A stretch of 64,000 nt of DNA from Patescibacteria group bacterium (GCA_038062015.1 JBBTXZ010000005.1:24215-88214), one strand, 5' to 3'; positions 50,581-54,534 are shown, numbered from the stretch's first letter. Notes: a model not told the origin generated them from the letters alone. Translations and numbers: made by a program.

Positions 50581-50589
50581 TGTTCCTTG

Positions 50590-50965
50590 GTAAATCTATA
50601 AGCCGAATTCTGTATTTGTGTAGTCATTTATCTGGCCCATCGATTACTTTCAGGGTCAAGCGGCACTCCCTAAACTACATAGAGTCCAGGGTACGGCCTT
50701 GCACCCGGGTAAGGATTTAGCGGACCGATATGTTGCCATACCAGTACTCGTTTCACCCCGATGCTTTAAACCCATCGCATCGGACTAAGCTTAATTTGAT
50801 AAAATCAAATCTTTGGGTTTGCCTTCTTTGGAGTCGCCTCCTTGGACGTCTCTTGTCGCACCTCTATCCTTTCGGACGGCGGGCGTTACCCGCTACCATT
50901 TTAACTACTCATTTTTAAATAAGTACGTGGGTGTTCGGACTTTCCTCTCTCTGTTAAAATATATA
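50590..50965 (-). ncRNA. rnpB: RNase P RNA (bacterial type)
   Basis: Minus strand contains a P3 hairpin followed by GAGGAAAGUCCGAAC (P4 5' strand), GGGUAACGCC, a GAAAGG...GGUGCGACAAGAGAC region resembling GAAAGGGUGCGGUAAGAGCGCACC, and ACAGAAUUCGGCUUAUAG (P4 3' strand, cf. ACAGAACCCGGCUUAUCGG). The + strand ORFs here are spurious. Confidence 0.65.
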
Positions 50966-51014
50966 ACAGAGAGTGACTACCCGATTTGCCAAAGAACTAT
51001 TATATTATAGCAAA

Positions 51015-51617: not shown

Positions 51618-51866
51618 ATTAGTAATGTTTAACTTTTAATACCTAAGTATAAAAAGAGCTATATGACTCCTCATCTTGAATGCACCCCAGCGAATTTTGA
51701 CAAAAGACACCAACTTTGCTATAATGTAAAAGTAAGATAAAACAGCACTTTTATAAGATTTATTTGCGAAAGAGATAGCCGTAGCCAAAAGCACTTCGAT
51801 AAACTCAGTGTTTCTGGCTATGGCTATCATGGTGATGGTCCTCTGGCACAACCCAAGGAGGTTGTC

Positions 51867-52475
51867 ATGGCAAGAGTAGCACTCTGCGATATTCGTGGAC
51901 TGCTCGTTGATACGATCGAGAAGCTGTCGGGCGAAGATGGTACCGAGTGGGCTGAAGAGTTCAAGCAGATTCTCCGTAAGGGAGTATCGGGTTTGCTCAG
52001 GAAGTTCACCGAAGTCATGGCCACCGGCGTCCAGAGGTTCGTCGCCAGAGACGCTTTCGGCGAGAACAACGCTGACGGCATCAAGTTCTATCTCTGGCCG
52101 AATTTCGTGAACAACTACCTCGGTAAGATCGAGGAAGACGTGAAGCCGGCGACCATCGTCATCCACCGTCTCGAGAAGGCATCGCGCAACGACAAAATCA
52201 TGGCCGAGCTGGGCATTGACATCAAGACCAAGAAGGGGGTCATCAAGTTGGCCCACTTCCGCGAGATGCTCAAAGTTCAAGCCCAAGGCCAGGAAGGTCT
52301 TCTTCTTGTTAACGGTTACGCAAACATGGCGTATATCGAAGATGAGAAAGGGAAGGTCTGGGCCGTGTACGCGTACTGGTATTCGTCGTATCGCGAGTGG
52401 CGCGTCTTTGCCGACTCTGTCGAGGACCCGTGCGAGTGGTTTCAGGGCGACCGGGTTCTCTCGCAAGTATCCTAG
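51867..52475 (+). CDS. DGR target (variable) protein, GC-rich; the C-terminal ~36 aa are encoded by the variable repeat
   Basis: Strong SD aaggagg 7 nt upstream. The 3' end (52357..52462) matches the downstream TR except at TR adenines. A terminator follows. Confidence 0.8.
   Translation: MARVALCDIRGLLVDTIEKLSGEDGTEWAEEFKQILRKGVSGLLRKFTEVMATGVQRFVARDAFGENNADGIKFYLWPNFVNNYLGKIEEDVKPATIVIHRLEKASRNDKIMAELGIDIKTKKGVIKLAHFREMLKVQAQGQEGLLLVNGYANMAYIEDEKGKVWAVYAYWYSSYREWRVFADSVEDPCEWFQGDRVLSQVS
52357..52462 (+). repeat. DGR variable repeat (VR)
   Basis: 106-nt alignment with 52788..52893. All 16 mismatches lie where the TR has A (VR has T, C or G). Confidence 0.85.
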
Positions 52476-52512
52476 GATCTTGGGTCTTCGGACTTTTGGT
52501 CCTTGGGTCCGC

Positions 52513-52555
52513 CGGGTCGGTTGGAGTTTTCAACCGACCCGTTTTCTTTTACAAA
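52513..52555 (+). terminator. Hairpin + T-run downstream of the VR (gggtcggttgg...ccaaccgaccc gttttctttt)
   Basis: Seen directly. May also act as the DGR target-recognition hairpin. Confidence 0.6.
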
Positions 52556-52787
52556 AGTTTCCAGTAAGATATATTTGGATAGTAGGCGAATCTGCCGGCG
52601 GTTACGGCTTCCGGCGGCCGAACTCCAGGCGTGCATAATGGTTTTGAATATAGGAGCCTTAAAAACGAAGATACTTGGTGCGGAATATTAGGGGAATAAG
52701 GAAAATTATATTCCGAGGGTCCCGAATTCGATACAGTCCTGAGAGCATTCAAGGGGCAGTGGCACAGAAGATATTCCGTACGATAAT

Positions 52788-52893
52788 CTGGGCCGTGAAC
52801 GCGAACTGGAATTCGTCGAATCGCGAGTGGAACGTCAATGCCAACTCTGTCGAGAACCCGAACGAGTGGAATCAGGGCAACCAGGTTCTCTCG
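52788..52893 (+). repeat. DGR template repeat (TR), non-coding, rich in AAC codon-equivalents
   Basis: In the VR frame it would encode WAVNANWNSSNREWNVNANSVENPNEWNQGNQ. The ORF 52675..52989 in the track is an artefact of this repeat. Confidence 0.85.
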
Positions 52894-52920
52894 AAAATCT
52901 CTTCGTTCAATCCGCCTTAT

Positions 52921-53196
52921 CTATTGGCGGGTTGTTTTTTTCTGCCAGCCGCCGAGCATCCGGCCGACCTCTTCAAGTTTTATAGATAGAGCAATATACT
53001 GTTTACTATTCAATAGTTTTAGTTCCCACATTATCTGAAAAAGGAATTTTAGTATATCAAACGAGTCAGATGCTTTATTGAGATATATCAGTTTATCCGG
53101 TTTTGTTTTCCGACTCGCGATAAAAATATTCTGAATCGTTTCAATAAATAAAGATTCAATTTTAGCTCCAAGTCCGAATCTGGTCAGTTTGTCCAA
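52921..53196 (-). CDS. avd: Avd-like accessory variability determinant (four-helix-bundle, 23S-IVS protein family), antisense to TR and RT
   Basis: C-terminus ...YIALSIKLEEVGRMLGGWQKK matches the IVS/Avd family ending (E-I/V-G-K/R-M-L-x-G-L/W). TTG start, with no in-frame ATG upstream. Confidence 0.55.
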   Translation of the reverse strand: MDKLTRFGLGAKIESLFIETIQNIFIASRKTKPDKLIYLNKASDSFDILKFLFQIMWELKLLNSKQYIALSIKLEEVGRMLGGWQKKTTRQ

Positions 53197-53263
53197 ATGA
53201 ATCCAATAACCATGCCAAATCTTGTAAGCGGCAATAAGCTTTTGGAGTATCGGCAGAGTAAGG

Positions 53264-54247
53264 TTGGGGGGGGGGCGTAGAAGTCATCTTTATTATGAAG
53301 ATATTATCTCACTTGAAAATATTTTGGAAGCGTGGAAAGAATTCATCAAAGACAAAAGAAAGAAAAAAGATGTCTATGAGTTCCAGTTGAATCTGATGGA
53401 TAATATTTTGGAACTCCACCGAGATTTAAAGAGCTTCAAATATATTCATGGTGGTTATAAGGTATTCAAAATCAACGATCCGAAACCAAGAAACATCCAT
53501 AAAGCCGATGTCAGAGACAGATTACTGCATCACGCCATTTACAGAATTTTGTATCCGTTTTTTGATAGGACGTTTATTAGTGACTCTTTTTCCTGCAGAA
53601 ACTACAAAGGGACTCACAGGGCCTTAAACAGATTCAGAAGGTTTGGTTACAAGGTCAGTAAAAATAACACTAAAACCTGCTGGGTTTTAAAATGCGACAT
53701 CAGGAAATTCTTTGAAAATATTAGCCAAGATATTCTAATCGGTATTTTAAAAAAGTATATTCCAGATAAAAAAGTAATCTGGCTGCTTGAAAAAGTAATC
53801 CGCAGTTTTTCTTCTGGTTTGCCCCTCGGAAATCTTACTTCCCAACTCTTAATCAATATCTATATGAATGAATTTGACCAGTTTGTGAAACATAAATTAA
53901 GGATTAAATATTATATCAGATATGCTGATGATTTTGTCATCTTTTCGGGAGATAGAAACTGGCTTGAAAGTAAAATAGAACCGATTAGGAACTTCTTATC
54001 TGACAGATTGAAATTAGAGCTTCATTCGGATAAGATTTTCATTAAAACCTTAGCTTCGGGAGTTGATTTTCTCGGCTGGGTTCATTTTCCGGACCACAGA
54101 ATTCTAAGAACAACTACCAAAAGAAGAATGTTTAGAAGATTAAAAGAATCAAGAAATCAAGAAACTCTTAATTCTTATTTGGGGTTGATTAAACACGGGA
54201 ACACTGGAAAGATAAAAAAGAAGATTTATTTAATTCAAAAATTATGA
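53264..54247 (+). CDS. DGR reverse transcriptase
   Basis: RT motifs, including the catalytic YADD (IRYADDFVIF) and an upstream ...LPLGNLTSQLLINIYMNEFD (motif 4/5-like). TTG start flanked by a 10-G homopolymer. Confidence 0.85.
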   Translation: MGGGRRSHLYYEDIISLENILEAWKEFIKDKRKKKDVYEFQLNLMDNILELHRDLKSFKYIHGGYKVFKINDPKPRNIHKADVRDRLLHHAIYRILYPFFDRTFISDSFSCRNYKGTHRALNRFRRFGYKVSKNNTKTCWVLKCDIRKFFENISQDILIGILKKYIPDKKVIWLLEKVIRSFSSGLPLGNLTSQLLINIYMNEFDQFVKHKLRIKYYIRYADDFVIFSGDRNWLESKIEPIRNFLSDRLKLELHSDKIFIKTLASGVDFLGWVHFPDHRILRTTTKRRMFRRLKESRNQETLNSYLGLIKHGNTGKIKKKIYLIQKL

Positions 54248-54534
54248 ACCCCCACACTCACAAAGCTTATATGTTCTACGTTTATTTAATAAAAAGTAGG
54301 AAAACAGGTAATTTATACACGGGTTGTACTAGTAATTTGGTAAAAAGATTCAAAGAACATAATGAAAACAAAAACTTTTCTACGAAGAATAAAGGACCAT
54401 TTGAACTTATTTACTATGAAGCATATAAAAATAAAGACGATGCTTTCAATCGCGAACATAATTTAAAGCTTCGTGCCAATGCTTTAACTGGTCTTAAAAG
54501 AAGGCTGGTTAAAAGCCTCGGCAAAGCTTTATGA
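54244..54534 (+). CDS. GIY-YIG nuclease family protein (YhbQ/UPF0213-like), overlapping the RT stop by 4 nt
   Basis: FYVYLIKSRKTGNLYTGCTSNLVKRFKEHN, the GIY-YIG signature. Confidence 0.75.
   Translation: MNPHTHKAYMFYVYLIKSRKTGNLYTGCTSNLVKRFKEHNENKNFSTKNKGPFELIYYEAYKNKDDAFNREHNLKLRANALTGLKRRLVKSLGKAL

Follow-up and report, generated by a model that had tools for sequence, protein, structure and literature searches.

The element described here is a diversity-generating retroelement (DGR) in a 64,000-nucleotide stretch of DNA (referred to as the window) that corresponds to contig CAYHUA010000001.1 of the metagenome-assembled genome (MAG) GCA_964359985.1, which belongs to the ultra-small Patescibacteria (also named Candidate Phyla Radiation, CPR) and was obtained from Hainich groundwater, well H51. 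The element is composed of a target gene that ends in a variable repeat (VR), a template repeat (TR), an avd gene on the opposite strand and a gene for a reverse transcriptase (RT); all coordinates are listed in Table 1. It is a genuine chromosomal DGR of a Patescibacteria-specific clade and, as a DGR, an ordinary member of that already described clade. In our judgement, what sets the locus apart is the overlap between avd and the RT gene, which spans a run of ten G/C base pairs and appears to be gated by this repeat; no earlier description of such an arrangement was found in the literature searched.

Repeats, reverse transcriptase and Avd

The two repeats align without gaps at an offset of 430 nucleotides. 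As had been claimed in the original prediction, the 16 mismatches between the 106-nt cores are all located at TR adenines, of which there are 27 (hypergeometric p=3.5e-12). When the scoring tolerates differences at A, the repeat extends to 112 nt, with 18/18 mismatches at TR adenines, and mismatches at other bases are entirely absent. In frame, the TR contains 11 AAY codons and five GAG/CAG codons; adenine substitution cannot create a stop codon in this frame, and ~10^16 protein variants are reachable. The VR core ends 12 nt before the target stop codon, and VR and TR share an identical 3' end, GGTTCTCTCG, that is similar to an initiation-of-mutagenic-homing (IMH) element.

The RT, which had been recognized from its YADD motif, harbors both motifs of the DGR clade, LGNLTSQ and YADD. 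Its best match in the PDB is 8ub7 (E=2e-42, full length, residues 4-294), which we take to be the DGR RT of a Bordetella phage (bRT), and the margin is wide, i.e., group II intron RTs match the window RT at about 1e-16. Identification of the antisense gene as avd is supported by the match of a 91-residue open reading frame (ORF, 52921-53196) to the Pfam family bAvd (PF22296, E=3.4e-12), which exceeds the cut-off of that family. This ORF covers profile positions 24-106 of 107, i.e., the antisense Avd that had been proposed is present but lacks helix 1 in that form. The sequence for helix 1 (LPILQKLIAAYKIWHGYWIH) is found further upstream in this frame, as far as position 53265, and the G10/C10 run separates it from the ATG at 53287. 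When reconstructed with nine Gs, Avd comprises 121 residues and covers positions 1-104 of 104 of NF033474 (DivGenRetAVD), with a score of 59.6 bits that is below the cut-off of 80 bits for this model. The element had been described as a complete DGR, which is correct in that every named component is present; at G10, however, neither avd nor the RT gene is in frame with its own ATG.

The homopolymer at the avd/RT junction

The G10/C10 tract is the only G/C run of at least seven nucleotides in the 64-kb window. The avd and RT genes are divergent, and their 5' coding ends overlap head-to-head across it. At G10 a +1 shift puts the avd leader out of frame with the avd body, and the RT leader is likewise out of frame with the RT body, such that each gene is displaced by one base relative to its ATG, while at G9 or G12 both genes are in frame. 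Nine Gs join the RT to the upstream ATG at 53212, giving MPNLVSGNKLLEYRQSKVGGGRRSHLYY.... The first canonical start codon within the avd body is TTG at 53196, use of which removes helix 1; a CTG is found at 53256-53254, the post-tract avd codon in the window being CTG. The annotated RT ORF starts at TTG 53264. No difference was found across the locus, VR included, in two independent assemblies that cover it, and G10 is also the tract length in a third, the start of which lies within avd. In the population represented by the window, the consensus tract is out of frame, no tract-length polymorphism is found among the assemblies covering the tract, and the VR is static in the three that cover the VR.

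A wider survey revealed that the tract is found throughout the clade. The order target(+)-TR-avd(-)-RT(+) is found in ~40 of 80 loci with a homologous target, and in 38 of these ~40 a VR/TR pair of ~110 nt is found in which TR adenines account for 5-24 mismatches (usually 12-24) and other bases for few or none. At the avd/RT junction, about 90% of ~115 related loci have a tract like that of the window (G6-14, sometimes a dinucleotide repeat). Where the target family is shared, it is a G7-11 run in 31/37 loci, with (GT)9 or (GA)12 in two more. In a second set, for which RT similarity was the sole criterion of selection and which comprises 75 usable metagenome loci, mostly with other target families, a G6-14 tract is found in 66 and a dinucleotide repeat in four more. 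Over 1.03 Mb of related loci, 96 G runs of at least eight nucleotides reside at the junction, and only five G/C runs of that length are found elsewhere. In locus L001, where the target is 46% identical to that of the window, a G10 run is found in the same place with the same frame relations.

The sequences that flank the tract are also conserved. A conserved RT His codon always supplies the avd ATG in antisense; of the loci in which a His codon was found, nearly all have CAT and only three have CAC. From this ATG to the tract, the leader has a mean length of 11.4 codons and is open in 78/80 loci, while the other two frames are open in 15/80 and 18/80 (p~1e-33). Loci that lack a repeat are in frame in 9/9 cases, whereas only 19/79 loci with a tract are (Fisher p=1.2e-5); among the tract loci, the frame phases are distributed as 19:32:28, consistent with a uniform distribution. 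In the subgroup to which the window belongs, there is no ATG for the RT downstream of the tract, only a TTG in two loci. Here, the ATG upstream of the RT is formed by the antisense of the His codon in Avd helix 1, as seen in the window, L001 and L038, and the offset of the RT relative to its upstream ATG equals that of avd in 10/10 subgroup loci where both are measurable; therefore, in this subgroup, avd and RT both depend on a single tract for their frame. Among related RT protein clusters, three annotated forms are about equally abundant: a long "MPxL...GGG" type, an "MGGGRRR" type, which is that of the window (TTG 53264), and a truncated "MEAWKEF" type. Automatic annotation of the DGRs in this clade is systematically misled, yielding truncated Avd proteins and "MGGGRRR..." or "MEAWKEF..." RT calls. 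Two loci exemplify decayed cassettes: L006 (5001-6809) has a target, avd and RT but no detectable TR, and in L037 (6094-6457) a (GA)12 repeat is accompanied by an avd riddled with stops.

Differences in tract length between otherwise nearly or fully identical sequences were observed in relatives of the window. The tract is the sole difference in 5765 bp between loci L156 (G10) and L166 (G8), and in 3990 bp between L188 (G11) and L187 (G10). From Hainich well H43, one strain is represented by four assemblies, of which L199 has G9, with avd in frame, while L200, L201 and L202 have G10 (L200 being out of frame). Beyond the tract, L199 and L200 have identical TRs and are distinguished only by 16 substitutions in the VR, each of them at a TR adenine. 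Among all four samples there are three VR alleles (VR at 244-368) that differ only at TR adenines, again with an identical TR, which is direct evidence of activity of this clade of DGRs in the window's own aquifer. VR alleles that differ between samples at A sites were also found in the P0111 population from the same aquifer and in the P0098 and P0107 populations from other metagenomes. The contig of L156 carries two tandem DGR copies (at 71 and 2451) that are ~92% identical and have tracts of G8 and G10.

Interpretation of the tract

These observations suggest that the tract is a slippage-dependent gate or throttle on the DGR mutator, a reading drawn from consensus assemblies only, in which homopolymer errors are possible, and to which we assign a probability of about 0.6. 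By analogy with the Bordetella system, a complex of RT and Avd would copy a discrete TR RNA, misincorporating nucleotides opposite adenines, and the cDNA would then replace the VR at the 3' end of the gene for a 202-residue cytoplasmic protein. One simple-sequence repeat (SSR) in the avd/RT overlap would gate or throttle this entire machinery, such that expression of avd and RT would need a +/-1 slip at the tract. Phase variation by a change in DNA length would be the leading mechanism because such changes are documented in relatives; slippage of the RNA polymerase, or of the ribosome through frameshifting on the C run, may add to it or even be the main contribution. As in SSR contingency loci, the repeat resides inside a coding region and its length sets the frame, and in relatives length polymorphism is found among otherwise identical strains (the three strain pairs above). 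The more far-reaching proposal, that most DGRs of the Patescibacteria clade are contingency loci in which the repeat stochastically switches the hypermutator on and off (both genes in the window subgroup), has in our view slightly less than an even chance of being correct.

Several observations weigh against such a gate, and these are best considered together with the explanations that they favor. The consensus tract length is constant in most repeatedly sampled populations (3 to 9 assemblies), i.e., those of the window (G10 in all three other assemblies covering the tract), L001 (three assemblies), P0098 (six), P0107 (nine) and P0067 (eight). In the P0107 population (G9), which is out of frame and lacks any canonical start past the tract, at least five VR alleles were nevertheless found in seven assemblies. 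Therefore, DGR activity does not need an in-frame consensus, and the example favors RNA-level recoding, a minority of in-frame cells, or RT and Avd acting in trans. A general rule by which in-frame populations would have variable VRs and out-of-frame populations static VRs was considered and is not clean, since P0107 is out of frame and highly variable. The stable lengths, the diversification in P0107 and the uniform phase distribution among tract loci all fit a model where a small in-frame fraction of Avd (and of RT in the window subgroup) is produced at all times, by stuttering of the RNA polymerase or by +1/-1 ribosomal slippage on CCC-CCC-CCC-C, while the DNA length drifts neutrally among the three phases; the tract would then be a constitutive throttle rather than an on/off switch. 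In addition, the tract encodes poly-proline, which is a stalling, slippage-prone context. Yet, about six loci have (GT)n, (GA)n or (CT)n in place of the homopolymer, and dinucleotide repeats are classic substrates of DNA replication slippage rather than of polymerase stuttering. Strain-level polymorphisms of DNA length do exist, and +1 and +2 offsets are equally common, i.e., there is no single programmed frameshift direction. We consider control purely at the RNA level to be an unlikely account of the tract, albeit one to be taken seriously.

It is also conceivable that the tract is not translated at all. A start codon is found within eight codons after the tract in 52/80 loci (TTG in 45, GTG in five and ATG in two), and the frequency of TTG at this first Avd-domain codon (45/80) is far above the 15% background share of TTG among Leu codons; to judge from the sequence, Avd may also initiate here. 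In P0067 the first Avd-domain codon is ATG, in most relatives an ATG for the RT follows the tract at a distance of 12-53 nt, and TTG 53264 of the window is in frame with the RT at G10. According to this reading, Avd starts just past the tract at TTG (CTG in the window) and the RT at TTG 53264 or, in most relatives, at the downstream ATG; the repeat would be part of a shared 5' untranslated region (UTR) or promoter spacer between divergent genes, and the DGR would be complete and constitutively expressible. However, the leader ORF is open in nearly all loci, compared to about 20% for the other frames, and all repeat-less loci are in frame from the same conserved ATG. A post-tract start is not more common in out-of-frame loci (36/61) than in in-frame loci (16/19), and 25 out-of-frame loci, including the window, have no canonical start after the tract. 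The TTG of the window is a chance start, because the dinucleotide that precedes the tract is not conserved. Given the preserved leader ORF and the consistent in-frame state of loci without a repeat, a wholly tract-independent arrangement appears less likely than slippage dependence, and we regard it as improbable.

With avd and RT out of frame in about three quarters of the tract loci, a static VR in the window population and a truly degraded avd in L037, this DGR and most of its relatives could also be viewed as pseudogenised remnants with a fossil VR/TR pattern. Such decay is very improbable: the lesion is always found at the same homopolymer and is flanked by intact ORFs on both sides (see the 78 open leaders above), the window displays no non-A mismatches between VR and TR, and VR alleles differ between samples in related populations. 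Homopolymer length errors may be present in short-read assemblies, the data are mostly metagenome assemblies, and long G runs are error-prone on short-read platforms. The idea that sequencing or assembly errors account for the out-of-frame tract lengths is nevertheless hardly credible, as the same length recurs in 3, 4, 6, 8 and 9 independent assemblies of the same population, the closed genome CP066687.1 carries G10, one of the polymorphisms is 2 nt, and such errors would create neither the tract nor its conservation.

If the tract does switch the mutator stochastically, only a subpopulation would diversify the variable protein at any time, and the repeat would constitute a second-order layer of bet-hedging on a diversity generator. 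To our knowledge, little has been established about how cells control DGR activity, and mutagenic retrohoming that is left unchecked should carry a cost; switching by the tract would be an answer to how this activity is restrained. A repeat that gates avd alone, or avd and RT, across ~90% of a large uncultured clade would represent a testable regulatory mechanism. A full-text search of the literature on DGR or Avd combined with homopolymer, phase variation, SSR or slippage yielded nothing relevant; the search did not include Paul et al. 2017 and the Wu 2018 supplements, so a prior mention is possible.

Known systems and further features of the locus

The gene order and the lack of a signal peptide in the target had been put forward as unusual, an assessment that does not agree with earlier work. 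The order TR-(avd on the reverse strand)-RT is architecture B3, found in 90% of the CPR DGR set (Wu et al. 2018 NAR, PMC5758913), and the targets of CPR DGR clade 2 are typically without transmembrane, signal or other recognizable domains (Roux et al. 2021, PMC8144416). The window has the TR-(antisense avd)-RT order in a host assigned to the Patescibacteria from contig identity and an NCBI protein name, and the target ORF does encode 202 residues without a signal peptide, as predicted; therefore, neither the gene order nor a target that appears to be cytoplasmic is anomalous, both being normal for this clade. The window element and CPR DGRs share the host group, gene order, antisense avd, a small domain-less target without signal peptide, a C-terminal VR and A-specific mutagenesis, while the repeat in the avd/RT overlap, the array of octamers after the VR and a target rich in G and C at third codon positions (GC3) were not found mentioned in the literature searched.

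The closest solved relative of the RT belongs to the DGR of Bordetella phage BPP-1 (mtd-avd-TR-brt). The two systems share the LGxxxSQ and YxDD motifs, an Avd partner that folds into a four-helix bundle, an AAY-rich TR, a GC hairpin after the VR and identical VR/TR 3' ends. In contrast to BPP-1, avd of the window is antisense and located downstream of the TR, with a head-to-head avd/RT overlap across a homopolymer. The predicted TR RNA of the window has its own terminator ~45 nt after the TR, whereas in BPP-1 the TR is reportedly followed by a spacer of roughly 140 nt that runs into brt. Furthermore, the window element is chromosomal and not phage-borne, and its target is no tail fibre.

The poly-G SSR contingency loci of Campylobacter, Neisseria and Haemophilus (PMC8355987, PMC5084427) resemble the locus in having a 7-14 nt G/C homopolymer in the 5' coding region, near-equal representation of the three phases among relatives, strain differences in length only and occasional replacement by a dinucleotide repeat. 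They differ in that the genes that would be gated in the window clade encode a mutator (RT and Avd) rather than a surface structure or restriction system, and in that one population is active with an out-of-frame consensus. In the window, two divergent genes read a single tract, one on each strand, with switching proposed by analogy. Transcriptional-slippage recoding, exemplified by Thermus dnaX and by poly-A rescue in insect endosymbionts, involves A/T runs and a fixed frame relation. A long homopolymer between an ATG-bearing leader and a gene body in another frame is common to these systems and the window, as is a reduced-genome, symbiont-like host, while in the window clade the run is G/C and any frame relation is found.

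Table 1. Features in and around the DGR, with positions counted from the first nucleotide of the window
Feature	Position	Strand	Remarks
RNase P RNA, bacterial class A	50583-50992	-	113 bits; short ORFs listed over it are spurious
Target promoter-like site, TTGACA-17-TATAAT	51697..51725	+	12/12 consensus match, sigma-70-like, extended -10 TG; putative function
Structured 5' UTR of target mRNA	51774..51868	+	Long hairpin 51774-51828 and a second hairpin; fold z=-3.8
DGR target gene	51867..52475	+	202 aa, without signal peptide, without Pfam or NCBIfam family
VR	52357..52468	+	Core 52358-52463; encodes last ~37 target residues
Degenerate ~8-nt repeats	52470..52512	+	NNCTTNGG, CTTTGA variant; right after target stop
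GC-rich 13-bp hairpin and T run	52513..52551	+	Inverted repeat; fold z=-5.0
TR RNA promoter-like site, TTTACA-16-TATATT	52548..52575	+	10/12 match; putative
TR	52787..52898	+	Core 52788-52893
Post-TR pyrimidine motif and terminator hairpin	52899..52941	+	CTCTTCGTTCAA; hairpin 52908-52934 and T7; fold z=-4.4
avd body	52921..53265	-	Whole four-helix-bundle domain; frame open up to tract
RT leader	53212..53265	+	MPNLVSGNKLLEYRQSKV; antisense to avd helix 1; further ATG at 53197
G10/C10 homopolymer	53266..53275	both	Read GGG.. in RT frame, PPP.. in avd frame
avd leader	53276..53287	-	ATG ACT TCT ACG = MTST; ATG is antisense of RT His codon CAT 53285-53287
RT body	53276..54247	+	RVT_1 E=5e-23
GIY-YIG gene, stand-alone	54244-54534	+	96 aa; start overlaps RT stop (ATGA)

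The target mRNA has a leader of 135 nt. Its long hairpin is a 22-bp inverted repeat, and the second hairpin pairs the AAGGAGG Shine-Dalgarno sequence; translational control by these hairpins is possible. The leader nucleotides are retained in the relatives P0002 and P0020, where they appear as spurious N-terminal extensions. Examination of the 80 nt after each VR in L001-L083 and L106-L181 revealed arrays of 5-8 degenerate units (NNCTTTGR / NNCTTGG), after which come a GC hairpin and a T run. In 38 of the loci the octamer autocorrelation peaks at lags of 8/16/24, and CTTTG is enriched 12.7-fold. Arrays that are alike by eye (CTTGG/CTTTG) also follow the VRs of other target families as well as 40 orphan target paralogues without an RT nearby, which are likely to be remote targets. 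It is probable that the recipient site for homing is marked by the octamer repeats and GC hairpin that follow the VR, and together these provide a sequence signature for finding remote DGR targets. The 13-bp GC hairpin is found only after the VR, 45-50 nt downstream; it presumably acts as the terminator of the target gene, equivalent to the post-IMH hairpin of DGRs.

Given the terminator hairpin after the TR and the promoter-like site at 52548-52575, the TR RNA appears to be a discrete transcript of ~360 nt (about 52582-52941) that ends at its own terminator, in the loop of which the avd stop codon is found. A per-sequence scan identified such a hairpin and T run in 37/38 related loci with 33 distinct 5' arms, while RNAalifold yielded no consensus for this hairpin, the stems being out of register in the MAFFT alignment. 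The TR is bracketed by a 13-nt complementarity (52664-52676, AACGAAGATACTT, and 52895-52907, AAATCTCTTCGTT). Long-range pairing of the TR flanks was considered as a general feature and rejected: close equivalents are found only in the nearest relatives L004 and L038, and across 38 loci the duplex energies are no better than those of shuffled sequences (mean z 0.06).

An Rfam scan identified nothing at the DGR, only the RNase P RNA and one tRNA elsewhere in the window, and no further DGR targets were found in the 64 kb. The GIY-YIG gene does overlap the RT stop, as had been noted, and its own stop overlaps the start of the next gene, a glycosyltransferase. It had been counted as part of the DGR layout; it is, however, absent beside the RT in all other related loci that have sequence there, with a weak fragment in L042 that is located far from the RT. 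The gene is a neighbour and not a DGR component, and it may be an independent selfish insertion.

Searches of the target against Pfam and NCBIfam gave no family match, a profile search against PDB sequences returned only noise, and a Foldseek search against the PDB found nothing. The VR motif, WAVxAxWxSxxRxWxVxAxSVxxPxxWxxGxQV, is presumably unlike the usual motif of C-type-lectin (CLec) VRs. There is no sequence similarity to CLec-fold DGR variable proteins (Mtd, TvpA 2y3c, FGE-like domains), and the target is only ~200 residues long; its C-terminal half may nevertheless be a very divergent C-type-lectin-like fold. The target family comprises 3198 representatives of 50%-identity clusters, mostly ~200 aa, and relatives are encoded in 125 stretches of species-representative genomes, nearly all from Patescibacteria; homologues vary exactly at the AAY-templated columns. 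One member, P0161 (926 aa), contains five tandem copies of the domain in a single protein. With ~3200 clusters and no Pfam model, the family merits one.

The target gene is also a GC island, with 55% GC in a genome of 40% GC. Its GC3 is 0.72, whereas the neighbouring genes that were measured have values of 0.29-0.43. This excess may stem from gene conversion, from transfer or from selection on the RNA. Across 79 loci the target is on average 12.5 GC points above its flanks, regardless of the GC content of the host, while the RT is 5 points below and avd is also below the flanks.

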